Part shown: positions 9,001 through 51,035 of the stretch, piece by piece
Layout of the letters: each line of letters begins with the position of its first letter
How positions within the stretch are numbered: position 1 is the stretch's first letter
Assembly (NCBI GenBank): GCA_964424195.1
Contig: CAYRHT010000001.1
Span: forward strand, 207,542-271,541
Origin: an uncultured Gammaproteobacteria bacterium
GTDB taxonomy: Bacteria; Patescibacteriota; Patescibacteriia; UBA1558; S5-K13
Length of the DNA stretch: 64,000 bases
Reading direction: 5' to 3'
Notes under the pieces: generated by a model
What the model saw: the letters and a program-made list of their open reading frames with translations, nothing else
Databases searched by the model: none
Told to the model about the DNA's origin: nothing
Translations under genes and position numbers: made by a program

Positions 9001-10059
9001 GAATTAGTGAAAGAAACTTTAATTGATGGTAATGTTCATCTTCAAGAAGAACGAAGATTATTTTATGTAGCTATGACTAGAGCTAAACAAGGACTCTATT
9101 TTACTTGGGCTTTAGATTATGGTGGAGCTCGCTTGAAGAAACCTTCAATCTTTTTGAAGGAATTAGATTTGATTAAATTAGAAGAAGATTTAAGTAAAGA
9201 TGTGGAAATAGATTTTAATAAGCTAGGAGCTAGGGCTATTAAAGATGTTCGGCGGATTACCAAACAAGATTTACAGAAATTATTACCAAAACAGTTCTCT
9301 TTTAGTCAATTAGCAGCTCATAGTGCTTGTCCCCGACAATATTATTATGCCTATATTTTAAAGATTCCAATTTTAGGAAAACATGTTTTCTCTTATGGAA
9401 AATCAATGCATTTAGCATTACAAAAGTTCTTTGGTTTAATTAAAACTCGTTCTGAAATCAATCAAGGAGATCTATTCGAAGTTAAAACTAAGAAAACTAA
9501 GGATAAATTACCAGTTAGCTTGGAAGAGTTATTAAAAATCTATGAAGAATCTTGGATAGATGATTGGTATGAGAATAAGTCTGATAAGGATAAATATTTA
9601 AAGCAAGGTCGAGAGACTTTAAAAGATATATATAAATCAGTTGAAAAAGATCCTCCCCAAGTAAAGTATTTAGAAAAAGGTTTTAATGTTCGCTTTAAAA
9701 ACTATAGTTTTAAGGGTAATATTGATCGAGTAGATCAAATTAAGGGAGGAGTACAATTAGTTGATTACAAAACAGGTAATCCTAAAGAAAAATTAACCTT
9801 TGCTGACAAAGAGCAATTGTTAATTTATCAAATTGCCTATGAAGATGTCTTTCAAGAAAAAGTTCAGAATCTAAAGTTTCATTATTTGAATAATAATACG
9901 GAGATTGATTTCTTAGGTAAAGAAAAAGAGTTAATTAAAGTTAAAGAGAAATTAGTTGAAACCATTGATCAAATTAATTCTTGTAATTTCAAGGCTGACC
10001 CTTCAGAATTTAAATGTACTTATTGTGATTTCAAGGATATTTGTCCCTTTAAAGTTTAG
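6010..10059 (+). CDS. UvrD/PcrA-family helicase fused to a C-terminal PD-(D/E)XK (Cas4/AddB-like, 4Cys Fe-S) nuclease; contains an in-frame intein
   Basis: Walker A GAGTGKTT; motif II VDEFQDTN; motif III split as VVGDDDQ | intein | SIYAFRGS; motif IV QNYRS; motif V TVHGAKGLEF; motif VI VAMTRA. C-terminus has CPRQYYYAY ... VDYKTG ... CNF ... CTYCDFKDIC, a RecB/Cas4-type nuclease with Fe-S cysteines. Confidence 0.85.
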   Translation: MSNDLKLNKEQKEAIEYGEGPLLIVAGAGTGKTTVLTQRVFHLLEKKKLEPDNVLALTFTEKSAGEMEDRLDQILPYAYTDLWVMTFHSFGQKILEDNGLDIGLPSNFKVLDQTGLWILIKKNLDRFNLDYYQPLSNPTKFIKELINHFSRCKDELIQAQDYLDYAEKVKMNQDKRNNEDAEWETKRLEEIANAYHTYQQILLENDVLDFGDLINYCLKLFKERPNILKKYQEQFKYILVDEFQDTNYAQYELVKLLALPQNNITVVGDDDQCLAPNAKVLIPDGQKAIKDFKVGDEILTAVGKGHVGVSKVNHVFKNKKKTEFLTIKTKRGYQLEVTDNHKMFCHVPSSRITNQYVYVYLMWRHDIGWRIGITKNLSWRLSLERSADKILGIKACQSEAEARFYEQLYSLKYSIPTYCFKQRKGLSINEESLKNLYQELDVDAGVARLTSDLNIDLTSFHVCLYGVIRGNKKRIKINLNLCQRRYRSKSHVKNKKELMRSYTIYHEINLQTSDKEILKKLENNGYSLHQARIGKRLKITNANLLDLKKDLKKIEKITNGIVQARAKIAKLNYQTLPALVIPAKNLLLGHYLPVKVKNEIIYDEIVEIKSKLKTSVVYDLEVDRTHNFLAEGVVVHNSIYAFRGSSMNNILGFKRDYKKTKEIFLNQNYRSAQNILDLSYDFIQQNNPHRLEVKLSEGKNKLSKKLKSNSKEEGEIAVLKAQSESDEVKVVIDQIHDLLKKGSNLSWSDFAILVRSNSQAKPFTIGLEEAQIPYNFVASNGLYEKEIIIDIIAYLKLLDNYHESSAVWRILNLRFLDINPQDAVNLSHAARRKTVSLYTVIKNNHFYLSLPEKTTKALDKIVALIEKHSKLVTKQSVWKIIWAFLIDSGYLAWVETLDEARKQEIFSHLSQFYKKVQLFEKESEAPRVKDFLEFFKLELDSGEKGKLASSVDDGPESVKVMTVHGAKGLEFKYVFIVGLVDKRFPSMERKEKIQIPNELVKETLIDGNVHLQEERRLFYVAMTRAKQGLYFTWALDYGGARLKKPSIFLKELDLIKLEEDLSKDVEIDFNKLGARAIKDVRRITKQDLQKLLPKQFSFSQLAAHSACPRQYYYAYILKIPILGKHVFSYGKSMHLALQKFFGLIKTRSEINQGDLFEVKTKKTKDKLPVSLEELLKIYEESWIDDWYENKSDKDKYLKQGRETLKDIYKSVEKDPPQVKYLEKGFNVRFKNYSFKGNIDRVDQIKGGVQLVDYKTGNPKEKLTFADKEQLLIYQIAYEDVFQEKVQNLKFHYLNNNTEIDFLGKEKELIKVKEKLVETIDQINSCNFKADPSEFKCTYCDFKDICPFKV
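6826..7920 (+). other. Intein (365 aa) inserted in helicase motif III of the UvrD-like gene
   Basis: Begins with Cys (CLAPNAKVL, block A) immediately after the conserved DDDQ. Block B TDNHKMF. Ends VVVHN followed by the +1 Ser of SIYAFRG. Removing 6826-7920 restores the canonical VGDDDQSIYAFRG motif in frame. A central region of about 200 aa is likely a degenerate homing-endonuclease domain. Confidence 0.78.
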
Positions 10060-38618: not shown

Positions 38619-38695
38619 TTCGCGGTAGCTCAGTTGGTTAGAGCGACTGGCTGTTAACCAGTAGGTCGTCGGTTCGAACCCGACCCGCGAAGCCA
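38619..38695 (+). tRNA. tRNA-Asn (anticodon GUU), CCA encoded
   Basis: Acceptor TTCGCGG/CCGCGAA; D-arm GCTC..GAGC; anticodon stem ACTGG/CCAGT with loop CTGTTAA (GTT); T-arm GTCGG-TTCGAAC-CCGAC; discriminator G + CCA. The last 6 nt (AAGCCA) are also the first 6 nt of the 110-bp island repeat. Confidence 0.85.
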
Positions 38696-40165
38696 AATTG
38701 TTTTTTTAGCGGAAAGTGCCTCTTTTGCAGTCGCAAAAGTCGGCAACTCCCATAATATTTCCCAGGGTTTCTGGGGAATTACGCGGATTTCTCGTTCCTG
38801 CAATATGAGGTTCGAGCCAATCTTTTTAAGAAAATCTCTCTTCGTCGAGAGATTTTTTTGTGAAGCGATAATTTTGGCTTGTTTAGCGTCCAGAATGAAC
38901 TTCTTAGCCCGTTCGAGCCAATGATTGCCCTTTTGTTCAAAACCCTCTAATTTCTCCTCAATATCGATTTTTTCATTGAGGATTTTTTGTTTTTTAGAAG
39001 CATATTCTTCTTTAGAAATTAGTTCTTCTAAATGAGAATCTAATAATTTATCTAACTTATTTTCATAATTATATAATTTTTCTTTTAAGTTTTGAACGAA
39101 AGAATTTCCGTCTTGTTCTTCTTGCTTATTTTGTTTTTCCAATTCTTGGATTATCCAATCAGCACAAGACGGAAATAAAGAAACTTTTTGAATTATCTCA
39201 GATATTTGTTGACTCAAAATTTCTTCACGAATATATTTTTGAGAACACTTAATTTTTTTCTTAGTGCAACGATAATAATTATGTCCCTTTTGAGTCTCGG
39301 AAGTAATTGCACAACCACATTCTCCACATTTAAATAACCCTCTAAAAGCGTATTTTTTAATTTGCTTTTTCTTTGGTTTAGAATGTTGTGAAATTACTTC
39401 TTGGCATTTATCAAAAAGTTTCTTGGCAATCATTGGCTCATGACTACCTCTAAATATTTCGTTGTTATACCTAATCAATCCATAGTAAAAAGGATTTTTT
39501 AAAATATGCTGAATAGTAGAAACCGCTAGAGCTTTATTATGCTTACTTAATAATCCGACCGAGGTGATAGTATCCCGCAAAAATTTAATAGTATAATTTC
39601 CAGTAGAGTAGAGTTTAAATATTTTTCTAACTAAATTAAATTTTTGCGGGTCTTTAATAATATTATGTTTTCTTAAATCATTAAGATAACCAATCGGAGC
39701 AGGTCCAGGAAGTTCACCTCGTCTTAATTTTTGCCTTAAACCTCGTTTAGTATTTTCAGAAAGATTGTCAACGAAATATTTAGATTGACCAAAAGCGATA
39801 TTTAACATGAATTTGCCTTGCGGAGTAGCTTCAAACCAGAAAGTAGGAAATTTTAGCGACTTAATTTCTTCACTATCAACTAAATAGATGATTTTACCAC
39901 CATCGACTGAATTACGAGCTAATCTGTCAGGATGCCACGCTAAAATTCCATTAGCTTTATTCTTTTCAATTTTATCTAACATATTATTGAATATTGGACG
40001 ACCTGGTTTTTTAGCAGTTTGAGATTCAATAAAAATATCAATAATATTTAGATTTTCTTTTTCGGCAAATTCTAAAAGTTCAGTTTTCTGAGCTTCTAAA
40101 GATAATACTTGTCGATCATCTTCATCAGTTGATTTTCTAATATAAAGGAAGTATTTATTATCCAT
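38654..40165 (-). CDS. Large serine recombinase (resolvase/invertase N-domain + recombinase domain + zinc ribbon + coiled coil)
   Basis: 503 aa from ATG at 40165: MDNKYFLYIRKSTDEDDRQVLSLEAQ (catalytic Ser region); DRLARN; recombinase domain; zinc ribbon CGECGCA...YYRC...C; C-terminal coiled coil. The ORF track extends it 60 aa upstream (to 40345) through the inverted repeat, which is read-through. The last 13 codons are encoded by the complement of the tRNA-Asn 3-prime end. Confidence 0.85.
   Translation of the reverse strand: MDNKYFLYIRKSTDEDDRQVLSLEAQKTELLEFAEKENLNIIDIFIESQTAKKPGRPIFNNMLDKIEKNKANGILAWHPDRLARNSVDGGKIIYLVDSEEIKSLKFPTFWFEATPQGKFMLNIAFGQSKYFVDNLSENTKRGLRQKLRRGELPGPAPIGYLNDLRKHNIIKDPQKFNLVRKIFKLYSTGNYTIKFLRDTITSVGLLSKHNKALAVSTIQHILKNPFYYGLIRYNNEIFRGSHEPMIAKKLFDKCQEVISQHSKPKKKQIKKYAFRGLFKCGECGCAITSETQKGHNYYRCTKKKIKCSQKYIREEILSQQISEIIQKVSLFPSCADWIIQELEKQNKQEEQDGNSFVQNLKEKLYNYENKLDKLLDSHLEELISKEEYASKKQKILNEKIDIEEKLEGFEQKGNHWLERAKKFILDAKQAKIIASQKNLSTKRDFLKKIGSNLILQEREIRVIPQKPWEILWELPTFATAKEALSAKKTIWLRGSGSNRRPTG
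38690..38799. repeat. 110-bp inverted repeat, left copy, flanking the serine recombinase gene
   Basis: Identical to the reverse complement of 40262-40371, confirmed by direct comparison. Contains internal palindromes CTTTTGC-agtc-GCAAAAG and CCCAG-ggtttc-TGGGG. Starts with AAGCCA, shared with the tRNA-Asn 3-prime end. Confidence 0.85.
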
Positions 40166-40261
40166 ATATTTAAAATTAATTTTTATCGCTTTTGGTCTGT
40201 ATTTGTAAATTACCGCTTCACCTTTGCTAGTAAGCAAAGAAAAATATTGGCTCTCAATAGA

Positions 40262-40371
40262 AGGAACGAGAAATCCGCGTAATTCCCCAGAAACCCTGGG
40301 AAATATTATGGGAGTTGCCGACTTTTGCGACTGCAAAAGAGGCACTTTCCGCTAAAAAAACAATTTGGCTT
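40262..40371. repeat. 110-bp inverted repeat, right copy
   Basis: Perfect reverse complement of 38690-38799. Its outer 6 nt (TGGCTT, the complement of AAGCCA) overlap the outer end of the large GC-rich repeat. Confidence 0.85.
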
Positions 40372-40686
40372 GGACTCCCGAACGAAATTCGAACTTTTTT
40401 CCGAGAAAATCCGACTTGTGACCCGAAACTCTAGTGAAGGGTTAATGCGGAATTTTAGGCGGGCGAAAAGCGGGGGTCTGGGGGAAACCCCGAAGGAGTC
40501 GCTTCGCGACCCTACGGGGTAAAGATTTTCGCCCGCCTTCGTCTTTAAAATTTAGCCCGCTTCGCCGGAGCGAAAGCGAGGCGAGAATTTTTGGCTTTCT
40601 TCCTTGTCTTGCCAAATCCCGTAAAACGGGAGTAGGCAGAGGGAAGACATCATTGGTCGTATTTCGCAAAAGCGAAATGCACCGCT
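40367..40686. repeat. GC-rich about 320-bp inverted repeat, copy A (left flank of defense cassette)
   Basis: Reverse complement of 50159-50443 at about 93% identity. It carries a 35-nt insertion (AAACCCCGAAGGAGTCGCTTCGCGACCCTACGGGG) absent from copy B. The inner-end hairpin differs in sequence but is conserved as a palindrome (ATTTCGC-aaaa-GCGAAAT here versus GCCACGC-tttg-CGTGGC). About 55% GC in a roughly 30% GC genome. Confidence 0.8.
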
Positions 40687-40820
40687 AAATTCCACCTCAA
40701 CCCCGACCACCACCCCTTTTTGAATTTGAAGAGCAAGTATTTTTTTGGTATTATAAAGGTATAATAATTTAATAATATACTTGTATTATCCTACTACTAT
40801 GATAATACTATATAATATCT

Positions 40821-41045
40821 ATGTCAAACAAATTATCAACTATTGCTAAAAACATCAAAAAGCTCAGAAAAGAAAAAGGTATCTCTCAAGATAAACTTTC
40901 TAAATTAGCTAATATTTCTTATAACACAATTATTAAGATTGAATCTGGAGATATTCAAAGTCCAGGTATTGATACTGCTCAAAAAATAGCTCAGGCTTTT
41001 GGTGTTAAAATTGATGATTTAATAAGTGAAAAGTATAAAAAATAA
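40821..41045 (+). CDS. XRE-family helix-turn-helix transcriptional regulator
   Basis: 74 aa; IKKLRKEKGISQDKLSKLANISYNTIIKIESGD is a canonical Cro/C1-type HTH; first gene of the cassette. Confidence 0.7.
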   Translation: MSNKLSTIAKNIKKLRKEKGISQDKLSKLANISYNTIIKIESGDIQSPGIDTAQKIAQAFGVKIDDLISEKYKK

Positions 41046-41065
41046 TAAATTAATATATCGAATAT

Positions 41066-44000
41066 ATGAATAGTGACTTAACTTTTATAACCAATGAAAA
41101 TGGTAAAAATTTAAAAGATAGATTTGATGATTTGATAAAAGATTCTCGTTTTTTTGATGTTTTGGTTGGTTATTTTTATACAAGTGGTTTTTATGCAATT
41201 TATCCTAGTTTAGAAAAAACTGAAAAAATTAAAATCTTAATTGGAATTAGTACTAATTATCAAACATATAATCTTCTTCAAAAAATTCAATCACATAAGG
41301 AAATAGGAGATCAGATTGGTGAGAATATAAAAACTGAGATGGAAAAAAGTGATAATAATTTTCAAGTAGAAAAAGGTGTATATAAATTTCTCGAATGGTT
41401 AAAAAGTGGAAAATTAGAAATTAAAGCTTATCCTGAAGAAAAAATACATTCTAAATTATACATAATGACTTTTAATGAAGATGATAGAGATATCGGTCGT
41501 GTAATAACTGGATCAAGTAATTTTACACAAAGCGGATTAGTGGATAATTTAGAATTTAATGTTGAGCTTAAAGATCCTTCTGATTATAGATTTGCCAAGG
41601 ATAAATTTGATGAATTATGGGGAAAGGGTATTGATGTTAGTGAGAAATATATTGAAACAATTACAAGAGATACGTGGCTTAGAGAAGATATAACGCCGTA
41701 TGAATTATATCTTAAATTTCTTTATGAATATTTTAAAGAAGAAATAAATGAAGAAGACATTTTAGAGCATAGTTATAGACCAGACAATTTTAAAGAATTA
41801 AAATATCAAGATCATGCAGTTATAAATGCAAAAAAAATTGTAGAAGAATATGGTGGTGTATTTTTGTCAGATGTTGTTGGTTTAGGAAAAACATACATGG
41901 GAACTATGCTTTGTCAAGAATTAAAAGGGAGGACTTTAGTATTAGCCCCTCCTCATCTTATTGATGAAAATAATGAAGGTAGTTGGGAAAATTCTTTTAA
42001 AAATTTTGGATTCCGCGCTAAAGATTATAAATGTGAATCTATTGGGGTGTTGGACAAAATAATAAAAAAAGAACTTCATAAAAAATTTGATATTGTTCTT
42101 ATTGATGAAGCTCATCGTTTTAGGACAGAAGAAACGGAAACATATGCAAAACTTGCTCAAATTTGTCGTGGTAAAAAAGTAATTCTTGTTACAGCTACTC
42201 CGTATAATAATTCACCAAAAGATCTGCTTTCTCAAATCAAACTTTTTCAAAAAGCAAGACAAAGTACAATACCAAACCTATTAAATATAGAAGGATTCTT
42301 TAAAAAATTAGAAGGAAATATTAAAAAACTTGATAGAAGAAAAGATAAAACAGAGTATCTCGAAAGAACAAAAGAAAATTCTAAACTTATTCGTGAAAAA
42401 TTATTAAAATATTTAATGGTAAGAAGAACGCGAAAAGAAATTCAAAAATACTATGGAGATGACTTGAAAAAACAAAAAATGAGCTTTCCTGAAATTGCAG
42501 ACCCAAAACCAATTCTTTATGAATTTAATGAGAAAGAAAATGAAATCTTTTTTAAAACTATAAAAATAATATCAAAAGATTTTAAATATTCTCGTTATAC
42601 ACCCTTTTTATATCATAAAGGAGATTTGGGTTCTGAAGAAACTAGACAAAAGAATATGAGAAAGTTCATGAAGATGATGCTTATTAAAAGATTAGAAAGT
42701 AGTTTTTTTGCATTTACGCAGTCACTAGACCGATTTATATCGTCTTATGAAAAATTTATAAGTGAATATAATACAGGTAGCGTATATGTAAGTAAAAAAC
42801 ATATACGAAAAATATTTGATTATCTAGATGGTGGTAATTTAAATGCTGTAGATCAATTAATTTCTGAAGGAAAGGCAGAAAAATTTTCTAGTGATGAATT
42901 TGGAACTAATGAGGCTGGTGTCGAATTTATAGATGCTTTGAAGAATGACCTAATCATCCTAAAAGATATTAAAGAATTATGGAAGGGAATGAAGAGAGAT
43001 CCTAAAATTATTGCTTTTAAAGAGAAATTAGCAAAAGAAAAGCCAATAAAAGAAGGAAAATCTATTGTTTTTACAGAATCAACAGAAACTGCAAAATATC
43101 TTATAGAGAATTTACAAGATATTTTTCCAAATCAAATTATTTATTTTTCCGGAGGAAGCTCACAAGCGGAACGAGAAATTGTCATGGAAAATTTTGATGC
43201 TAACACAAAAAATATCAAAAATGATTATAAACTACTTATTACAACCGATGTATTAGCAGAAGGAGCCAATTTACATCAAGCAAATGTTGTCATAAATTAT
43301 GACATTCCATGGAATCCAACTCGTATAATGCAAAGAGTTGGTCGTATAAATAGAGTTGATACAAAACATGATAAAATTTACACTTATTCTTTTTTTCCAA
43401 CAGATCAATCAGATGAACAAATAAAATTGATATCATTAGCAGAGGCAAAAATACAAGCATTTATCACTTTGCTTGGAACTGATGCAAAGCTATTAACAGA
43501 GGGAGAAGTTCCTGAAGGGCATAGTTTATTTAATCGAATATTATCAAAAGAGATGATTGAAGGTGAAGAAAGTGAAGGAGATTCTGAATTAAAATATTTA
43601 CAAGAAATTAGAAAAATAAGAGACAAGGATCCAGACTTATTTGAAAAAATAAAAAAATTACCTAAAAAAGCACGGACTGCTCGAAAATTGCAGGAAGGTA
43701 AATCAAAGCTATTAACTTATTTTAGAAAAGGAAAATTACAAAAATTTTTCATTATCGACGCTGGAGCATCATCTATTTCTAATGAAATTGATTTTATGAA
43801 AGCGGCAGAACAATTCACAGCAAAACCAAGCGAAAAACGATTCAAATTAGATAAGTTATTTTATGGATTACTTGATAAAAATTTAGAAATGTTACAGAAA
43901 GTGGATGAGTATGAAGAAGAGGAATTTTCTACTAAACGAGGAAGCAGAAATAATGCGGCTCGTCTTTCTAAGATTTTAAACGCAAAGAATATAAAAAAAT

Positions 44001-44266
44001 ATAAAGGATTTACCGATGATAATGAAGCATATATTCAATCTGTAATTAACGAATTGGATTCTGGGGGTATTCCTAAAAAGATAACGCAAACAATTTATAA
44101 AAAAGTCCAAAATACTCCTGAAATAATCGCAAATCCTTTAAAACTTTTAGCTGTGTTGAAAACAACATTGCCAAATGATTTTCTTCAACCAACTCAAAAT
44201 GAAATAGACAAGGGAATATCTAGGAAAAAAGAAATTATACTTTCTGAATATTTTAACAGAAAATAA
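41066..44266 (+). CDS. PLD-family (HKD) nuclease fused to SNF2/SF2 helicase (DrmC-DrmD-like fusion)
   Basis: 1066 aa. N-terminal HKD motif HSKLYIMTFNEDDRDIGRVITGSSNFT. Helicase motif I VVGLGKTYMG, motif II VLIDEAHRFR, motif III ILVTATPYNN, and C-terminal helicase lobe motifs (LITTDVLAEGANLHQANVVINYDIPWNPTRIMQRVGRINR). Confidence 0.8.
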   Translation: MNSDLTFITNENGKNLKDRFDDLIKDSRFFDVLVGYFYTSGFYAIYPSLEKTEKIKILIGISTNYQTYNLLQKIQSHKEIGDQIGENIKTEMEKSDNNFQVEKGVYKFLEWLKSGKLEIKAYPEEKIHSKLYIMTFNEDDRDIGRVITGSSNFTQSGLVDNLEFNVELKDPSDYRFAKDKFDELWGKGIDVSEKYIETITRDTWLREDITPYELYLKFLYEYFKEEINEEDILEHSYRPDNFKELKYQDHAVINAKKIVEEYGGVFLSDVVGLGKTYMGTMLCQELKGRTLVLAPPHLIDENNEGSWENSFKNFGFRAKDYKCESIGVLDKIIKKELHKKFDIVLIDEAHRFRTEETETYAKLAQICRGKKVILVTATPYNNSPKDLLSQIKLFQKARQSTIPNLLNIEGFFKKLEGNIKKLDRRKDKTEYLERTKENSKLIREKLLKYLMVRRTRKEIQKYYGDDLKKQKMSFPEIADPKPILYEFNEKENEIFFKTIKIISKDFKYSRYTPFLYHKGDLGSEETRQKNMRKFMKMMLIKRLESSFFAFTQSLDRFISSYEKFISEYNTGSVYVSKKHIRKIFDYLDGGNLNAVDQLISEGKAEKFSSDEFGTNEAGVEFIDALKNDLIILKDIKELWKGMKRDPKIIAFKEKLAKEKPIKEGKSIVFTESTETAKYLIENLQDIFPNQIIYFSGGSSQAEREIVMENFDANTKNIKNDYKLLITTDVLAEGANLHQANVVINYDIPWNPTRIMQRVGRINRVDTKHDKIYTYSFFPTDQSDEQIKLISLAEAKIQAFITLLGTDAKLLTEGEVPEGHSLFNRILSKEMIEGEESEGDSELKYLQEIRKIRDKDPDLFEKIKKLPKKARTARKLQEGKSKLLTYFRKGKLQKFFIIDAGASSISNEIDFMKAAEQFTAKPSEKRFKLDKLFYGLLDKNLEMLQKVDEYEEEEFSTKRGSRNNAARLSKILNAKNIKKYKGFTDDNEAYIQSVINELDSGGIPKKITQTIYKKVQNTPEIIANPLKLLAVLKTTLPNDFLQPTQNEIDKGISRKKEIILSEYFNRK

Positions 44267-44268
44267 TT

Positions 44269-47200
44269 ATGAATAAACAAGAAGCAAAAAATCTCATTGA
44301 AAATACTTTTAGCAGTGATTTTGATGCAGATAAATATCAAAAGTTTGTAGTAAATCTTTTCAAAAAATATTCTGAAAGTAATTCTTCTCCTACAATAAAA
44401 AATGCTTATCAAGCTTTCATAACTAAATACACAATAATCGGAACTTTTGAAGATAGTGAAAACAATAAGATAGATATCTTGGAAGTTCATCTAAGTAAAG
44501 AATCAACATTAGAACGAGCTAGAACAGCTCAAAGAAACTTTGTAGCAGAATATCTTAAATCAAGAAACAAGGAAGCCGCTTTAGTTGCTTTCATTTCACC
44601 TAATAATAAGGAGTGGCGATTATCTTTTGTAAAATTAGAGCACACATTAGAAGTAATTGACAAAAAAATAAAAGCAAAAGAAGAAATAACTCTTGCTAAA
44701 AGATGGTCATTTTTAGTAGGAGAATACGAAGGGAGTCATACTGCACAAAGTAGATTCGTGAATTTATTGATGAGTGATAAAGAACCAAATTTAGCAGAGT
44801 TTGAAGTAGCTTTTGATATAGAAATAGTTACAAAAGAATTTTTTAAAAAATACACGGAGTTATTTTTTCAATTTAAAGAAAAACTTGATGAATTGTTAGA
44901 AAAAGATGAAATAATAAAAAAAGATTTTAAAGAAAAAGAAATTTCAACAGTTGATTTTGCTAAAAAAACTCTGGGACAAATTGTTTTTTTATATTTTTTA
45001 CAAAAAAAAGGATGGTTTGGCGTTCCTGCTGATAAAAAATGGGGAGAGGGTCCTAAGAAATTTATAAGAGTATTATTTGAACGACGGGAAAAATATGGTA
45101 GTAATTTTTTTAATGATATTTTAGAACCATTATTTTATGAAGCTCTTGCTCAAGATCGTGGTAAGGAATCGATTTATCCACGATTAAATAATTGTAGGAT
45201 GCCATTTTTAAACGGTGGACTTTTTGAGCCAATGAATGATTATAAATGGGAAACAACTGACATTATAATTCCAGATGAACTTTTTTCAAATAATATAAAG
45301 ACTAAGGAAGGTGATATTGGGACTGGTATTTTAGATGTATTTGATAGATATAATTTTACTGTGAATGAAAATGAGCCATTAGAAAAAGAAGTTGCAGTTG
45401 ATCCTGAAATGTTAGGTAAAGTTTTTGAAAATCTTCTTGACATAAAAGACAGAAAAAGTAAGGGAGCATTTTACACCCCTCGTGAAATTGTTCATTATAT
45501 GTGTCAAGAAAGTCTTATTAATTATCTTGAAACCGAAACTAAAAATAAAATACTACGAGAAGATCTGGAATTTCTTATTCACAAAGGGGATAGAATAATT
45601 GAAAATGATAAGGTGTCTTTAGAAAAAACAAAAGGAGGTAAATATCCAAATGAGTATTATAAAATATTTACACCTGATTCAATTATAGCAAATGTAATAT
45701 TGCTTAATGAATTATTAAAAAATATAAAAGTAGCTGATCCAGCCGTTGGTTCAGGAGCTTTTCCATTAGGAATGATTAATGAGATTGTTCGAGCTAGAAA
45801 AGTTTTGAATATTTATCTTAATGAAGATGTTTCTGATTATGAATTAAAAAAACATGCTATAACTCACTCTATTTATGGAGTTGATATTGATTCTGGAGCG
45901 GTGGATATTGCTAAACTTCGTCTTTGGTTAGCGCTAGTTGTGGATGAAGATACTCCTCATCCCCTTCCTAATCTTGAACATAAAATAATGCAAGGAAATA
46001 GTTTAATTTCTGAATATGAAGGAATAAAATTATTTGATGATTCTATTTTAGATGATGCTCGAATTATTAAAGACGGAAAAGATGTAACTGATGAAAAAAT
46101 TTCTTTGTTACAAAAAGAATATTTTAATCTTCATGCCAATAAACAGTTAACTGCTACCAAGGAAATAGAGATAAAAAAAGAGATTAAATCACTTCAACGA
46201 AAATCAAAAGATTTTGTTAATAAATTAGAAGTATTTAAAGGAAATGCTAGTATTTTTGATGTTCCAGAAAAAAGGAAGATTGCTCAAGAGAAGACTGTTC
46301 TTTTGCAAAGAAAAATTAAGGAATATATTTCTGAATCACGAAGAAGTCAAAAACAAAATCTTAAGGAAGAAATTGATAATTTAAAATGGGATCTTATTGA
46401 AGTTTCTTTGGAAGAGCAAAATAAATTAGATGAAAAAAAATTAAAGAAGATTCGAGATTATAAAAAATCAAATACAAAACCTTTTTTTATTTGGAAATTG
46501 GAATTTAGTGATGTTTTTAAGAAAAAAGGTGGCTTTGATATTGTGATTGGAAATCCACCATATGTAAGTGTTAAGAAGATTTCCATAGATAATAAAAAAC
46601 TCTTTTCTGAATTATTTGAGACTGGAAAAGGTAGATTTAATCTTTTTACTTTGTTTTTAGAAAAAGGACAAAAGTTATTAAAATCCGATGGCGTTTTAAG
46701 TTATATTTTACCAGAAGTATTGTACACAAATTCAGAATATAGATATATTAGAAAATACTTATTAGAGAAGACACAAATACTTTCTATTTCCAATTTTTCC
46801 TCGCGTGTCTTTGAGGCTTCTGTAGATACGTCCGTCATAGTCATAAAAAATGGGTACAATCAAAAATCTAAAATAAAAGTATTATTAGACCTGTCTTCAG
46901 TTATCACAACAATTAAACAAGCTGAAATTAACGACATCATCTTAACTAAAAACCCCGATAGTGTTAAGTCTATTTTAGACAAAATAAACTTAGGAAAGGA
47001 CAGGCTATCTAATATTATTGAAGTACAACAAGGTATAATATACTCTGGTCAAAAAAAAGAAGATGTATTTTCTAATAAAAAATTCGATAGCACATATAAA
47101 AAAATATTAGATGGTAGGGATATAAGTAAATACTCAATTAATTATAATTTTAAAAAAGAAAACAGGTACATTAAATATACAAGACAATTACATAGACCAA

Positions 47201-47655
47201 GAGAAGAAAGACTGTTTTTAGCAGAAGAGAAAATAATTTTTCCTAGAAGAAGTATGTTTTTCATGTGCACTATCGATTTCAAACAGTTTTATCTTTTGAA
47301 TACAGCGTATATTTGCTTATTAACAAATTCTAAGTATTCTTTAAAATATATTTTAGGTATTCTTAATTCCAAAGTTGTAAATTTTTTATATTCAAAAACT
47401 TATATTGGTTGGCAGATTACGATTCCAGCCATAAATGCATTACCTATTCCTGAAATTACGCCTAATGAGCAAAAACCCTTTATCGATCTCGTAGATCAAA
47501 TTTTAGAAATTACTTCTCAAGAAAATTATGATTTCAAAAACTCACCAATTCAGCAAAGGGAACTAGAAAAGAAAATAGATGAAATGGTTTATGAATTATA
47601 TGGATTAACTAAAGAAGAGATTGGGGTTATTGAAGAGAGTTTTAATAAAGTATAA
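44269..47655 (+). CDS. N6-adenine DNA methyltransferase, gamma-class, PglX/Eco57I/type IIG-like (large)
   Basis: 1128 aa; motif X/I GAFYTPREIVHYM and ADPAVGSGAFPLGM; motif IV VIGNPPYV; PFLNGGLFEP and LPNLEHKIMQGNSLI blocks typical of BREX PglX / DISARM DrmMI / Eco57I-like enzymes; C-terminal target-recognition-like region. Confidence 0.8.
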   Translation: MNKQEAKNLIENTFSSDFDADKYQKFVVNLFKKYSESNSSPTIKNAYQAFITKYTIIGTFEDSENNKIDILEVHLSKESTLERARTAQRNFVAEYLKSRNKEAALVAFISPNNKEWRLSFVKLEHTLEVIDKKIKAKEEITLAKRWSFLVGEYEGSHTAQSRFVNLLMSDKEPNLAEFEVAFDIEIVTKEFFKKYTELFFQFKEKLDELLEKDEIIKKDFKEKEISTVDFAKKTLGQIVFLYFLQKKGWFGVPADKKWGEGPKKFIRVLFERREKYGSNFFNDILEPLFYEALAQDRGKESIYPRLNNCRMPFLNGGLFEPMNDYKWETTDIIIPDELFSNNIKTKEGDIGTGILDVFDRYNFTVNENEPLEKEVAVDPEMLGKVFENLLDIKDRKSKGAFYTPREIVHYMCQESLINYLETETKNKILREDLEFLIHKGDRIIENDKVSLEKTKGGKYPNEYYKIFTPDSIIANVILLNELLKNIKVADPAVGSGAFPLGMINEIVRARKVLNIYLNEDVSDYELKKHAITHSIYGVDIDSGAVDIAKLRLWLALVVDEDTPHPLPNLEHKIMQGNSLISEYEGIKLFDDSILDDARIIKDGKDVTDEKISLLQKEYFNLHANKQLTATKEIEIKKEIKSLQRKSKDFVNKLEVFKGNASIFDVPEKRKIAQEKTVLLQRKIKEYISESRRSQKQNLKEEIDNLKWDLIEVSLEEQNKLDEKKLKKIRDYKKSNTKPFFIWKLEFSDVFKKKGGFDIVIGNPPYVSVKKISIDNKKLFSELFETGKGRFNLFTLFLEKGQKLLKSDGVLSYILPEVLYTNSEYRYIRKYLLEKTQILSISNFSSRVFEASVDTSVIVIKNGYNQKSKIKVLLDLSSVITTIKQAEINDIILTKNPDSVKSILDKINLGKDRLSNIIEVQQGIIYSGQKKEDVFSNKKFDSTYKKILDGRDISKYSINYNFKKENRYIKYTRQLHRPREERLFLAEEKIIFPRRSMFFMCTIDFKQFYLLNTAYICLLTNSKYSLKYILGILNSKVVNFLYSKTYIGWQITIPAINALPIPEITPNEQKPFIDLVDQILEITSQENYDFKNSPIQQRELEKKIDEMVYELYGLTKEEIGVIEESFNKV

Positions 47656-47669
47656 TCTATAAAAGTATT

Positions 47670-48809
47670 ATGGAAAAAAATAAACAACAAAATAGCTCAC
47701 GTCCTAATCAAAAGACAGCAATAAAACTTTTAATTGCTTCTGGCGGTCGTTGTTCTTTTAACGGTTGTAATGAATATTTATTAAAAGATAATTTAACTCT
47801 TCGTGAATATAATGCTAGTAACATTGCTCATATTGTTGCTTTAAAAAAGAATGGTCCTAGAGGAGACAGTAAATTAACAATAAATGAAAGAAATGAAATT
47901 GATAATTTAATGTTAGTTTGTCGAAAACATCATTGTTTGATTGATAATAAAAGTTTAGTTAAAAAATATCCTGTTAATTTATTAAAAAAATATAAAAGAG
48001 AGCATGAAAATAGAATTTTTAGATTAACTGGACTATCTCCAGAGAGAAAAACAAAAGTAATTATTTTTAAGTTTAAAATTGGTAACGATTTGGTTAAAAT
48101 TTCTAATGAAGATATTTATGAGGCAATTCATCCTTATTATCCAGTGGATAATAGTGTAGAGATTGATTGTACTATTGGTGACTTGGGAACAAAAAAATAT
48201 TATGAATGTATTGTAGAGCATATTAAAACAAAAGTAGATAATTTTAATAATTTTGAAAATGTTAAGCACGTTTCCGTTTTTGCTTTAGCTCCTATTCCTT
48301 TGCTTATATATCTTGGTAATTGTTTAAGTAATAAAGTAAAACTAGAATTATTTCAAAGACATAGAACTGTTCCCGAGACATGGAAATGGAAAACACGGCA
48401 GAAGGTTAGTAATTTTGAATTTAAACAAGTAAACAAAAATAAAAATAAAAATGAAGTGGGTTTAATACTTGAACTTAGTGGTTCTGTTAACTTAGATACA
48501 ATTCCAAGAAAAATTATAAATAATTTACCTGTTTATAAAATAACATTAAAAAATGAAGAATTAACACCAACGTTTTTAAAATCTAGAAAAACTTTAAATA
48601 ATTTTAAGGAGGTTTATCAATCTGCATTAAGAAAAATAAGTCAAGGGGGAAAAACGAAAAAAATTCATTTATTTCCAGCTGTGCCAGCACCCATTGCAGT
48701 ATTGCTTGGAAGAGAAGTGTTAAAAAAAATTGATCCCGATATTCTAGTATACGATAATAATAAACAAAAAGGGGGATTTTATCCCGTATTAACAATAAAA
48801 AATAAATAA
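47670..48809 (+). CDS. HNH endonuclease fused to a C-terminal sensor-like domain (possibly SAVED-like; Cap5-like architecture)
   Basis: 379 aa; N-terminal HNH (CSFNGC ... AHIVAL ... NLMLVCRKHHC). The C-terminal roughly 250 aa has an alpha/beta character with VSVFALAPIPLLIYLG and IHLFPAVPAPIAVLLG motifs. Similarity to SAVED is an impression, not a demonstrated match. Confidence 0.55.
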   Translation: MEKNKQQNSSRPNQKTAIKLLIASGGRCSFNGCNEYLLKDNLTLREYNASNIAHIVALKKNGPRGDSKLTINERNEIDNLMLVCRKHHCLIDNKSLVKKYPVNLLKKYKREHENRIFRLTGLSPERKTKVIIFKFKIGNDLVKISNEDIYEAIHPYYPVDNSVEIDCTIGDLGTKKYYECIVEHIKTKVDNFNNFENVKHVSVFALAPIPLLIYLGNCLSNKVKLELFQRHRTVPETWKWKTRQKVSNFEFKQVNKNKNKNEVGLILELSGSVNLDTIPRKIINNLPVYKITLKNEELTPTFLKSRKTLNNFKEVYQSALRKISQGGKTKKIHLFPAVPAPIAVLLGREVLKKIDPDILVYDNNKQKGGFYPVLTIKNK

Positions 48810-48810
48810 T

Positions 48811-50142
48811 ATGAAAATTAATGATTTTTTGAATGATATAATTTCGAGTCAAGATATAAAAAAAGATGATGAAGAAATAAAAAAATTACAAGATGAAAGA
48901 GAAAAGGTACAAACTCTTGTGAATGATTCTTATGGTGATACAAAGAAAATGATTAGATATGGTGGTTCTTATGCTAAAGATACAATGATAAGGGATAGTT
49001 TTGATTTAGATATTCTTTGTTATTTTCATGCAGATGAAACAACGGCTGGTAACACTTTAGAAGAAATTTATGATAATCTAAAGGAAGTTCTTTCAGAAGA
49101 ATATTATATAGATCCTAAAAGATCCGCTATTAGGTTAAAAAATAAAGATGATGAAGTTGATTTTCATATCGATTTTGTGCCAGGAAGATTTGTTGAGGGA
49201 AAAGAAGGTGATGCTTTTCTATATCAAAAGGGAGCTGAGAAAGATCGTCTTAAAACAAATCCAGACAAACATATTAAATACATAAAGGAAAGTCAGTTAA
49301 CAGATATAATAAAATTAATTAAAATATGGAAATGTATTTACAATATTGATTTAAAAACTTTTATTCTGGAATTGTTAATTGTTAAAATCTTAAAAGATAG
49401 TAAGAAAAAGTCAATTTCAGAAAAATTAGAAATATTTTTTACAAAAATAAAAGACGAAGTTGGAAATATGACAATTGAAGATCCTGCTAATTCTAATAAT
49501 GATTTATCAGAACTATTTGATCAAAAAATTAGAGATACTTTAAAACAATACGCTCAGACAGCTATAGATAATATTGAAGAAGAGGATTGGTTGGGAGTAT
49601 TTGATAATAAATTTGAAATTGATGATGAAACGGAAGAAAGTGATGACAATAAATCTTTGGCTTTAATGGATATATCTCATTGTCAACAACCAAAATGGTT
49701 AATATCTGAATCTCCTTGTAGTGTAGAAATAAGATGTTTTATTAAAGATAAAAACGGCGAGGATAGAGAGGAACTTAAGTCAGATGATAAAAATATAGTA
49801 GATGATTTGATATTAGAATATAGGGCTGAAGTTTCTAATTGTTTTGATGATTACGATATTTATTGGCAAGTGGTGAATACTGGGTATCACGCTGAAAGAG
49901 ATGATGGATTAAGAGGGGAGTTTTTTAAGGGTAAGGATTTAGTCGGAGATTTAACTGAAGATCAGAGGTTGAATTATGAGTTTAGCATGTATAGAGGGAA
50001 ACATTGGATAGAATGTTTTATTGTTAGGGATAATAATTTATTAGCTAGGAGTGGTCGTTTTTATGTGAATATTTTACCAACTTTTAAAAAACCTAGAATA
50101 AAGAAACGTAATAGCATTCCTTATTATAGACGTAAATATTAA
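48811..50142 (+). CDS. CD-NTase/SMODS-like minimal nucleotidyltransferase with a C-terminal extension of unknown function
   Basis: 443 aa; pol-beta NTase signature GGSYAKDTMIRDSFDLDI (GS...DxD); third acidic residue in FHIDFVP (h[DE]hhP); helical NTase-associated region with the IKIWK motif; roughly 160-aa Cys-containing C-terminal domain with no recognisable homolog. Confidence 0.55.
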   Translation: MKINDFLNDIISSQDIKKDDEEIKKLQDEREKVQTLVNDSYGDTKKMIRYGGSYAKDTMIRDSFDLDILCYFHADETTAGNTLEEIYDNLKEVLSEEYYIDPKRSAIRLKNKDDEVDFHIDFVPGRFVEGKEGDAFLYQKGAEKDRLKTNPDKHIKYIKESQLTDIIKLIKIWKCIYNIDLKTFILELLIVKILKDSKKKSISEKLEIFFTKIKDEVGNMTIEDPANSNNDLSELFDQKIRDTLKQYAQTAIDNIEEEDWLGVFDNKFEIDDETEESDDNKSLALMDISHCQQPKWLISESPCSVEIRCFIKDKNGEDREELKSDDKNIVDDLILEYRAEVSNCFDDYDIYWQVVNTGYHAERDDGLRGEFFKGKDLVGDLTEDQRLNYEFSMYRGKHWIECFIVRDNNLLARSGRFYVNILPTFKKPRIKKRNSIPYYRRKY

Positions 50143-50158
50143 TTATTTTTAATTTTCA

Positions 50159-50443
50159 AGCGGTGCGCCACGCAAAGCGTGGCACGACCAATGATGTCTT
50201 CTCTCTGCCTACTCCCGTTTTACGGGATTCGGCAAGACGAGAAAGAAAGCCAAAAATTCTCGCCTCGCTTTCGCTCCGGCGAAGCGGGCTAAATTTCAAA
50301 GACGAAGGCGGGCGAAAATCTTTTACCCCCAGACCCCCGCTTTTCGCCCGCCTAAAATTCCGCATTAACCCTTCACTAGAGTTTCGGGTCACAAGTCGGA
50401 TTTTCTCGGAAAAAAGTTCGAATTTCGTTCGGGAGTCCAAGCC
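50159..50443. repeat. GC-rich about 285-bp inverted repeat, copy B (right flank of defense cassette)
   Basis: Reverse complement of copy A (40367-40686) minus the 35-nt block. Its outer end ...GGGAGTCCAAGCC abuts the AAGCCA direct repeat at 50439-50444. Confidence 0.8.
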
Positions 50444-50450
50444 ACCATTA

Positions 50451-50480
50451 AATAGAGCCTAAAGCTCTATTTTTTGTTTT
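50451..50480 (+). terminator. Rho-independent terminator at the right island boundary (putative original tRNA-Asn terminator)
   Basis: AATAGAGC-ctaaa-GCTCTATT followed by TTTTTGTTTTTTT. Confidence 0.55.
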
Positions 50481-50624: not shown

Positions 50625-51035
50625 ATGAAAGCTAATCTTTCTTTGTATGTTGGTTGTGCTTTGACACATGCTCCTGAAGAGTTTAAACAAAATGTGCAAA
50701 CTCTGAAGGATAGACTAAAAGAAGTTTGTAATGTTCTAGAGTTTGTTGGTTTAACCAATGGTACTAACAATGACGTCTATAACCACGATATTAATGTTTG
50801 TGTTCGTGGTTGTGATCTTTTCGTTGCTATTTGTGATATGCCTTCAATCGGTCTGGGTTATGAATTAGGAACTCAAGTTGAAGACCGTAAAATGCCAGCA
50901 TTAGCCGTTGCTCAGGCGGATCCAATAGTAACTCGTTTGGTTTTAGGAATTCTTAAGCCACATTATAAATTCCAGAGATATAAGGATTTTGATGATCTTT
51001 ATAATATAATCATCAAGAAACTTGAAACACTTTGA
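50625..51035 (+). CDS. Nucleoside 2-deoxyribosyltransferase-like (NDT fold) protein
   Basis: 136 aa; SD AAGGAGG before the ATG; LYVGCAL...; C-terminal block DMPSIGLGYELGTQVEDRKMPALAV resembles the NDT-family D.G..fE.G.A...gKPv motif; terminator hairpin at about 51046-51080. Confidence 0.45.
   Translation: MKANLSLYVGCALTHAPEEFKQNVQTLKDRLKEVCNVLEFVGLTNGTNNDVYNHDINVCVRGCDLFVAICDMPSIGLGYELGTQVEDRKMPALAVAQADPIVTRLVLGILKPHYKFQRYKDFDDLYNIIIKKLETL

Follow-up and report, generated by a model that had tools for sequence, protein, structure and literature searches.

A helicase-nuclease/methyltransferase pair and Type I CBASS genes as likely cargo of a tRNA-targeting serine-recombinase element

The described defence systems closest to the genes considered here are of two kinds. 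Systems such as class 1 DISARM (defence island system associated with restriction-modification) and the Hma and 'BREX-related' (BR; BREX, bacteriophage exclusion) Type-2 systems combine helicase and nuclease functions with an adenine methyltransferase, and HmaA is known to defend against T4 (PMC11232893; PMC12839542). Type I cyclic-oligonucleotide-based antiphage signalling systems (CBASS) pair a nucleotidyltransferase of the cGAS/DncV-like kind (CD-NTase) with an effector, and one survey reports that ~40% of the CD-NTases of Type I systems have an AGS-C fusion (bioRxiv 10.1101/2023.05.21.541620). A table entry of Milman et al. 2023 lists a coding sequence with phospholipase D (PLD; cd09178) and SNF domains beside Cj0031-like Type II restriction-modification (RM) genes (PMC9881135). 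Here, we analyse a cassette of five open reading frames (ORFs) in a 64,000-nt stretch of contig CAYRHT010000001.1 (the window, to whose positions all coordinates refer), in which genes of both kinds follow one another on the + strand behind a gene for a helix-turn-helix (HTH) regulator (gene 1). Genes 2 and 3 encode a fusion of an HKD nuclease with an SNF2-type ATPase and a large N6-adenine methyltransferase, and genes 4 and 5 encode a Cap5-type effector and a CD-NTase.

The locus likely represents two independent, HTH-controlled defence modules of known type that an integrative element carries as its cargo. The five co-oriented ORFs had been listed in a first-pass annotation of the window and were found at exactly the coordinates given there; the motifs it had read in the translations (HKD and helicase motifs, FYTPREIV, NPPY, NGGLF and LPNLEHKIMQGNSL) are present, and profile searches bore out its domain calls for all five genes. 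The gaps between genes 1 to 5 are 20, 2, 14 and 1 nt in the ORF list, which agrees with the annotation except for the second, given there as 3 nt. On the + strand, the stretch 40821-50142 is free of predicted intrinsic-terminator-like sites, of which the first lies at 50450, and the G+C content is uniformly low (0.26-0.32). The modules are probably co-transcribed from one HTH-controlled promoter.

CBASS and putative restriction-modification genes of the cassette

Judged from their sequences, genes 4 and 5 make up a Type I CBASS of canonical form. The gene 4 product contains a SAVED domain (3.2e-43, Pfam profile search), aligns along its whole length with PADLOC CBASS endonuclease-effector models (2e-119) and is homologous to solved Cap5 HNH-SAVED structures (8ysq, 6.6e-55; also 7rwk, 7rwm and 8fm1). 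The gene 5 product is matched by SMODS and AGS_C (Pfam) and by the PADLOC CBASS cyclase model (6e-70); its GSYAKDT, DLDI and HIDFVP segments align with the catalytic residues of CdnC, and G52, S53, D65, D67 and D121 are invariant among 21 homologues. It is from this agreement of Pfam, PADLOC and PDB that the CBASS identity of the two genes follows. As in other Type I systems, a CD-NTase with the GS...DxD...D signature stands next to a SAVED sensor/HNH effector, and neither Cap2/Cap3 (E1/E2/JAB) nor HORMA/TRIP13 genes were found among the ORFs between the repeats described below, those downstream being housekeeping genes. The first-pass annotation had recognised gene 5 as a cGAS/DncV-like nucleotidyltransferase, which these data confirm, and had singled out the C-terminal domains of the 379-aa and 443-aa proteins for closer study, where SAVED and AGS-C, respectively, were found. 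It had also considered two features unusual that proved to be common: the SAVED effector gene precedes the cyclase gene in every relative whose context was fetched (L010, L011/12, L013, L101, L102/103, L104/105 and L106), and the additional nucleotidyltransferase domain is the AGS-C fusion of the survey cited above. Viral contigs scanned with Cap5 or the CD-NTase alone gave no match, and a scan of them with a CD-NTase alignment gave distant AGS-C matches only. By analogy with characterised CdnG-Cap5 systems (PMC8568899; PMC12141522), the AGS-C-bearing CD-NTase would sense infection and make a cyclic oligonucleotide, which would be bound by the SAVED domain of Cap5, so that the HNH domains would oligomerise and degrade DNA and the infection would be aborted.

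Genes 2 and 3 appear to form the restriction/translocase subunit and the modification and specificity subunit, respectively, of an RM system. The gene 2 product is matched by PLDc_2 / RE_NgoFVII together with ResIII, SNF2 and Helicase_C profiles and by the PADLOC model 'HKD+Snf2' (6.9e-52), filed as 'C3a139 HKD+Snf2', whose origin could not be traced in the literature; its PLD domain matches that of the restriction nuclease NgoFVII. It carries the HKD motif HSKLYIM...GSSNFT and the helicase motifs GLGKT, DEAH, TATP and QRVGRINR, and in 41 homologues the HKD motif and all helicase motifs are kept, with H128, K130, GLGKT and DEAH invariant. The gene 3 product is matched by Eco57I, N6_Mtase and TaqI_C profiles and contains DPAVGSGAF in addition to the motifs named above. 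It is composed of an N-terminal restriction-endonuclease-like domain (residues 1-170), a conserved helical region, a methyltransferase core with a ~150-residue coiled-coil insert between motifs I and IV, and a TaqI-like target-recognition domain (TRD) at ~770-1090. An alignment of its homologues shows almost no variation in residues 1-600 and in the catalytic motifs, whereas the TRD region is hypervariable. Its full-length match to the PADLOC/REBASE-type 'Type IIG' model (REase_MTase_IIG) reaches 7e-201, a far better fit than those of the DrmMI (4e-32) and PglX models. In an AlphaFold model (mean pLDDT 77), the methyltransferase-TRD part resembles CamA, M.BseCI and M.TaqI, and the full-length protein resembles PglX/BrxX.

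The N-terminal 170 residues of the gene 3 product, modelled separately (pLDDT 89.5), have an alpha-alpha-beta-beta-beta-alpha-beta topology. Among 62 sequences, D62 is present in 61 and D69 in 55; position 72 is Glu in 36 and Gln, Ile, Lys or Val in 24 (Gln in 12), and position 74, where Lys would be expected, is variable and never a conserved Lys. The domain has most likely lost the conserved catalytic (D/E)xK and serves in docking or regulation. The gene 3 product would use its fast-evolving TRD to recognise a short motif in DNA and would methylate host adenines, and at unmethylated sites it would recruit or license the HKD-SNF2 protein, which would translocate on DNA with ATP and cut by its PLD/HKD nuclease. 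In this the pair would resemble a Type ISP or Type III enzyme that has been split.

The pair recurs widely. The best 120 database matches of HKD-SNF2 are all ~1061 aa long and 60-97% identical, an exhaustive search placed 1480 clusters (50% identity) in its family at E<=1e-30, and the pair spreads from lineages of the candidate phyla radiation to Bacteroidota and archaeal metagenome-assembled genomes (MAGs), with relatives in Paceibacterota MAGs. A scan of genome contigs with the single protein yielded only four loci because its low-complexity peptide patterns were poor, and an alignment-seeded scan of metagenomes was far more productive, with 80 further HKD-SNF2 loci; those whose downstream sequence reached 1200 nt or more, 55 in number, were scored. 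A methyltransferase gene lies 3' of HKD-SNF2 in 54 of these 55, as it does directly in L001, L002, L004, L005/6, L007/8 and L009; the gap is <=40 nt in 41 of the 54, and one unrelated small ORF intervenes in the other 13 (e.g. L027, L033, L034/L044/L046, L074, L080 and L096). Judged by eye only, these inserts look like DUF1016-type nuclease, DUF3800, NYN/LabA, HEPN/DUF86, MazF/PemK and ATPase genes. About 30 further helicase/methyltransferase pairs were recognised from an identical 'longest contig' length in the match lists of both proteins. Across ~60 other pair loci, no true Cap5 or CD-NTase homologue was found, the sole trace being a weak partial match to the HNH region upstream in L068.

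The limits of the module are drawn by the closest copy of the pair (L005/L006), which is 96% identical to the window in nucleotide sequence over 41041-46049 only, beginning 25 nt before the helicase ATG and stopping inside the methyltransferase gene; there, the HTH gene and CBASS are both missing and the TRD is swapped. Since the identity is confined to this block, neither the HTH gene nor CBASS belongs to the RM module, whose TRD was replaced. Genes 2 and 3 thus look like an autonomous two-gene module. Two single loci add to the picture of the family. On a plasmid of the cultured organism Parabacteroides distasonis (NZ_OY725763.1, 20076-30431), a 31%-identical HKD-SNF2 gene is directly followed by an N-6 DNA methylase gene, with an HTH gene and one for an 'RNA-binding domain' protein before the pair and a TIR-domain protein gene after it, again in a stacked arrangement. 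In L015, from an otherwise identical population, a 1-nt deletion at position 2653 (window 43138; AAATTATT to AAATATT) cuts the HKD-SNF2 gene into ORFs of 729 and 312 aa, a change that points to a decaying restriction gene or else to an error in sequencing.

A probable serine-recombinase element with an inverted attP-like copy

The five genes lie between inverted repeats at 40366-40660 and 50184-50444 (261-295 nt, 95-99%), next to a large serine recombinase gene and a tRNA-Asn gene (Table 1). This mobile context (recombinase, tRNA insertion site and long inverted repeats) had been overlooked in the first-pass annotation. The three junctions share AAGCCA, with AGCCA as the common core: the left junction consists of the tRNA end and arm A, the right one of arm B and CCATTAAATAGAGCC, followed by a hairpin with a T-run, and in the internal copy A' (40257-40371) pairs with 38690-38804 and B/C (40366-40660) pairs with 50184-50444. 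When the outer flanks are joined on paper, they give a tRNA gene with its terminator (attB), and when the ends of the element are joined, they give exactly the internal copy 40257-40660, reversed (attP). Because the junctions rebuild both attB and attP, the element is taken to span 38690-50444 (~11.75 kb) at the CCA end of tRNA-Asn. The domain set of the recombinase and the reconstruction of att sites around a shared core are those of large-serine-recombinase integrative elements, and the adjacent recombinase would have inserted the element at the AGCCA end of the tRNA gene. The hairpin and T-run past the cassette are presumably the original tRNA-Asn terminator, displaced by 11.75 kb through the insertion.

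Table 1. Features of the element and its cassette (window coordinates)
Feature	Position	Strand	Basis or remark
tRNA-Asn(GTT)	38619-38695	+	Rfam 72.6 bits; ARAGORN; 3' AGCCA forms the left junction
Large serine recombinase, 503 aa from likely Met start	38654-40165	-	Resolvase, Recombinase and Zn_ribbon_recom domains
attL core	38690-38695	.	Junction sequence at the tRNA-Asn end
Inverted-repeat arm A'' (P-right half of attL)	38690-38804	.	115 nt, 98% complementary to 40257-40371
Intact inverted attP-like copy	40257-40660	.	Core 40366-40371 (TGGCTT)
AT-rich (19% G+C) promoter region	40721-40820	+	Directly upstream of the HTH start codon
Gene 1, XRE/HTH_3 regulator, 74 aa	40821-41045	+	HTH_3 1.8e-17
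Gene 2, HKD (PLD-family) nuclease-SNF2-type superfamily 2 (SF2) ATPase fusion, 1066 aa	41066-44266	+	Pfam, PADLOC, invariant motifs
Gene 3, gamma-class N6-adenine methyltransferase, 1128 aa	44269-47655	+	Profiles, alignment, predicted structure
Gene 4, Cap5-type CBASS effector (HNH + SAVED), 379 aa	47670-48809	+	Pfam, PADLOC, PDB
Gene 5, CD-NTase with SMODS core and C-terminal AGS-C Ig-like domain, 443 aa	48811-50142	+	Pfam, PADLOC, CdnC alignment
Right inverted-repeat arm (P-left half of attR)	50184-50444	.	attR core AAGCCA at 50439-50444
Hairpin and T-run	50450-50472	+	Terminator prediction; first + strand terminator-like site past the cassette

The recombinase ORF extends mechanically to a GTG at 40345, inside the repeat arm, and the Met at residue 61 is the likely start, as in ENA contigs, where the protein is called as 503 aa. 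The 3' part of the ORF passes through attL and ends within the tRNA-Asn gene (38654-38695), so that the C-terminal tail of the protein depends on the integration state. The arms have ~50% G+C in a genome of 27-30% G+C and fold far better than shuffled sequences (z-score -5.4). A structured RNA in them was rejected, as Rfam gave no match at the gathering or E<=1 thresholds. In addition, a G+C-rich hairpin of 34 nt is inserted in the left arm at about 40488-40515.

Elements of the same architecture were found elsewhere. L063 (4879-15603) shows the same layout in tRNA-Gln, with an AGCCA core and a 6-nt overlap; the att reconstruction holds here too, and the last cargo is a UvrD-like helicase (654 aa) in place of CBASS. 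L023 (162-10882) has a repeat-bounded HTH gene and RM pair with a KAP NTPase (1089 aa) as its last cargo, and L053 (46-1766) is a further sister element. The P-arm motif GTTCGAATTTCGTTC-N9-10-AGCCA is common to the arms of the window and its sister elements, and the hairpin loop CCCCCAGACCCCC to those of the window, L023 and L053, its orientation varying between elements. The backbone of such elements would comprise the recombinase, the inverted repeat, the HTH gene and the RM pair, and the slot past the methyltransferase would take variable cargo. No description of a layout with an extra inverted attP was found in the literature, and the architecture is apparently a recurring, undescribed one. 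L007/L008, where the RM pair lies beside a 37%-identical serine recombinase gene, belong to a different element family, as long inverted repeats are missing there. In IMG/VR, a scan of viral contigs recovered two contig-end fragments (L016 and L017) that are 62% identical to residues 1-114 of the recombinase.

Gene 1 appears to belong to the backbone of the recombinase element and not to be a regular component of the RM pair. Of 79 loci, only 5 have an XRE ORF in the 700 nt upstream of the helicase gene, and in three of these five HTH-bearing loci (L026, L053 and L063) a 48-65% identical serine recombinase gene is upstream and divergent, as in the window; in a fourth, L023, the contig stops in the repeat before any recombinase gene could be visible. 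A palindrome (GTATTATC-N10-GATAATAC, 40783-40808) just before the HTH start is a putative operator, and palindromes were read at the same place before the HTH genes of L023, L026, L053 and L063. The gene 1 product matches HTH_VI, capH (6.7e-11) and Control_protein models of PADLOC and resembles an RM controller (C) protein, which would fit the autoregulated switch of mobile RM systems. Despite the capH match, CapH/CapP regulation of the CBASS was rejected because no ORF for a CapP metallopeptidase is present in the cassette.

The window sequence is identical to a 952-kb JGI contig. In JGI sample 3300072015, a 539,879-nt contig has the order HTH...CD-NTase, recombinase (+), rpoD (-), and by this gene order the cassette is inverted relative to the recombinase and rpoD; the spacing between the CD-NTase and recombinase genes, 322 nt, is exactly that predicted for inversion across the repeats. 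As a reading of gene order only, this contig stands either for a genuine inversion or for an assembly led astray by the repeat. Contigs L015, L099 and L023 all break inside repeats. With its repeat-bounded cassette beside a serine recombinase, the locus suggests that very small genomes may have a natural and compact means to move, and perhaps flip, defence genes.

Two further observations concern the rest of the window. Just beyond the right end of the element, a 136-aa ORF (50625-51035) has no Pfam match. Far upstream, at 6010-10059, a 1349-aa UvrD/PcrA-type helicase, probably a housekeeping protein, has PADLOC matches to GajB and DRT-helicase models at residues ~4-274 and 637-1053, two separated blocks that suggest a large insertion, possibly an intein.

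Relation of the two modules and rival explanations

The three closest Cap5/CD-NTase pairs, those of the window, L010 and L101, are 61-71% identical to one another, and each is co-oriented with and directly 3' of a different RM system, a recurrence that likewise had not been seen in the first-pass annotation. In the window (41066-50142), Cap5 follows the HKD-SNF2 and methyltransferase genes after a gap of 14 nt; in L010 (1030-5350), it follows a C5 methyltransferase and R.HinP1I (112 nt), and in L101 (502-4560), Tsp45I and an N4/N6 methyltransferase (1 nt). All three pairs are missing a regulator of their own. In the distant relatives L011/L012, L013, L102/L103 and L106, a LexA-like (Peptidase_S24) repressor gene is located upstream, which suggests that these may be under DNA-damage-responsive control.

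The tight packing of the cassette, its one upstream regulator and the lack of an internal terminator are what would be expected if all five genes formed a single novel system in which a minimal epigenetic module of DISARM/BREX-like type is linked to nucleotide signalling. The first-pass annotation had offered such a module as one of two options. The full set was found only in this element and near-identical copies, each sub-module recurs separately elsewhere, the core genes of DISARM and BREX are absent, and none of the ~60 other helicase/methyltransferase loci has CBASS; since these co-occurrence data separate the modules, a single five-gene system is contradicted and we consider it very improbable. 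The same evidence favours the annotation's other option, two stacked systems on one promoter, and the lesson is that a five-gene operon need not be a system, co-occurrence having split this one cleanly into modules. Another question is whether gene 3 needs gene 2 at all. As a self-sufficient Type IIG RM enzyme, gene 3 would cut with its own N-terminal nuclease, and HKD-SNF2 would be an accessory (a cleavage-boosting helicase) or a separate SauUSI-style, modification-dependent Type IV-like defence. The protein is indeed a single-chain gamma-class N6A methyltransferase with a TRD, its match to the Type IIG model is full-length, both D62 and D69 show conservation, and Milman et al. (PMC9881135) call relatives homologues of the Type IIG enzyme Cj0031. 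Type IIG enzymes act without an obligatory partner, however, and here HKD-SNF2 is a near-obligate neighbour, upstream in 54 of 55 loci and in six further ones, with gaps of 2-18 nt; there is no conserved (D/E)xK, and the 96%-identical block of L005/L006 spans both genes and therefore fits one two-subunit enzyme. A self-sufficient gene 3 is, in our judgement, quite unlikely. Databases label the pair 'Type IIG', 'N-6 DNA methylase' or 'SNF2-related protein', the last two being the generic RefSeq names (e.g. on the Parabacteroides plasmid), which is likely mis-annotation. Should HKD-SNF2 prove to be the subunit that restricts, a large body of annotations as 'Type IIG' would be wrong, and there would be a simple ATP-dependent restriction enzyme of two proteins, its specificity easily swapped, still to be characterised.

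The recurrence of CBASS behind RM genes raises the possibility that the two are functionally coupled, with Cap5/CD-NTase as a dependent second layer of RM operons that shares their promoter; the trigger might lie in the action or the failure of restriction, as with DNA ends, anti-restriction proteins or stalled translocases. All three of the closest subclade members are directly 3' of different RM systems and have no regulator, the distant relatives having the LexA-like S24 repressor instead. Against this, only three loci were sampled, defence genes cluster anyway, the HKD-SNF2/methyltransferase pair was found with CBASS in none of ~60 other loci, sister elements carry unrelated cargo in the same slot, and Type I CBASS systems function alone in heterologous hosts (bioRxiv 10.1101/2023.05.21.541620). 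Coupling is an unlikely but not negligible reading, and the recurrence is a testable lead on layered immunity, in which a first line of defence and abortive infection may be connected. It is similarly doubtful that everything holds jointly, namely that a promoter-less CBASS back-up triggered via the RM system sits in an invertible cassette of an undescribed element family beside an unnamed two-subunit ATP-dependent RM class mislabelled as Type IIG; the HTH-RM-cargo stretch would then be an invertible, exchangeable unit of tRNA-targeting serine-recombinase elements in which attP is present a second time, inverted, and the 'last-gene' slot takes variable defence cargo. Two independent modules carried by an integrative element remain our preferred reading, and several points weigh against it. 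Co-transcription is suggested only by the close spacing of the genes and the lack of a predicted terminator, the word 'independent' may overstate the case given that each of the three nearest CBASS relatives is attached to an RM operon, and 'restriction subunit' and 'docking domain' are roles that we infer. Literature searches for the HKD-SNF2/methyltransferase pair found only passing bioinformatic mentions. No empty attB was seen among the 22 rpoD-bearing contigs read, all of which have the recombinase or the element, and an exact 21-mer scan of metagenome contigs for the element or the empty site gave 0 matches, the organism apparently being outside that collection; the circular junction of an excised element was not found in the same scans either.

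Comparison with known systems

Profile searches place genes 4 and 5 cleanly in an existing subtype, Type I CBASS, and do not do so for genes 2 and 3. The closest systems to genes 4 and 5 are the CdnG-Cap5 Type I CBASS of Asticcacaulis and Lactococcus (bioRxiv 10.1101/2021.08.31.458341 / PMC8568899), which consist of the same two genes, a CD-NTase and an HNH-SAVED effector. Like these systems, to whose kind the Cap5 structures 7rwk, 7rwm, 8fm1 and 8ysq belong, the cassette is free of Cap2/3 and HORMA/TRIP13 and keeps the catalytic GS/DxD/D residues and the HNH motif, and gene 5 shares its AGS-C fusion with a large part of the Type I cyclases, as noted above. Unlike them, gene 4 is at most ~40% identical to solved Cap5 proteins, and the two genes are appended to an RM operon without a regulator of their own. 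The element itself resembles tRNA-targeting large-serine-recombinase islands in having the same Resolvase/Recombinase/Zn-ribbon domains, a short attL/attR core and a regenerated tRNA 3' end, but has an extra intact attP-like copy, inverted, between recombinase and cargo; because of this copy, both recombinase and cargo are bracketed by inverted repeats, of 115 nt and 261-295 nt, respectively.

For genes 2 and 3, membership in DISARM, BREX, ARMADA and Hma/BR was rejected since the defining partner genes are absent: no DrmA/B, PglZ/BrxC, ArmC or DUF499 gene was found in the cassette or among the other large ORFs of the window, and PADLOC matched nothing in the ten other largest window ORFs except the UvrD-type helicase. 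Class 1 DISARM (DrmA, DrmB, DrmC, DrmD and DrmMI) likewise has a PLD nuclease, an SNF2 helicase and a large N6A methyltransferase, and the first-pass annotation had called the cassette 'DISARM-like' for this reason. The resemblance is one of domains only. Neither the DrmA helicase nor DrmB (DUF1998) is present, PLD and SNF2 are fused, gene 2 scores 142 bits against NCBIfam DrmD, for which the cut-off is 610, and gene 3 is nearer to Type IIG models than to DrmMI, so by score neither is an orthologue of its DISARM counterpart. For BREX, PglZ and BrxC are missing and gene 3 reaches 114 bits with the NCBIfam BREX-1 PglX model (cut-off 500). ARMADA, as defined in bioRxiv 10.1101/2025.09.22.677730, includes ArmC, a YprA-type helicase-DUF1998 fusion that has no counterpart here.

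The Hma and BR Type-2 systems come nearer in design, with a Swi2/Snf2 helicase-nuclease effector and an N6 methyltransferase, and the BR Type-2 effector has an N-terminal HKD domain as in gene 2. The present module differs in consisting of two genes only, without the DUF499 ATPase (HmaC) or DUF3780; its methyltransferase is of the Eco57I/TaqI_C type rather than the DUF1156 type, and the PADLOC HmaA match of gene 2 is partial only (1.5e-25). With the Type IIG/IIL enzymes (Eco57I, MmeI, DrdV, BpuSI and Cj0031 of C. jejuni), gene 3 shares a chain of nuclease-like domain, helical linker, gamma-class N6A methyltransferase and TRD, from which it departs in its non-conserved (D/E)xK, in the coiled-coil insert within its core and in nearly always following an HKD-SNF2 gene. 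Type ISP (LlaGI, LlaBIII) and Type III (EcoP15I) enzymes are related to the pair through a shared proposed principle, in which recognition of an asymmetric site falls to a methyltransferase-TRD, and an SF2 ATPase-nuclease moves along the DNA and cuts it if unmodified. The pair was assigned to neither, given its gamma-class motif order, where Type III has a beta-class Mod, its N-terminal HKD nuclease in place of Mrr or PD-(D/E)xK, and its two chains, over which the functions united in Type ISP are split.

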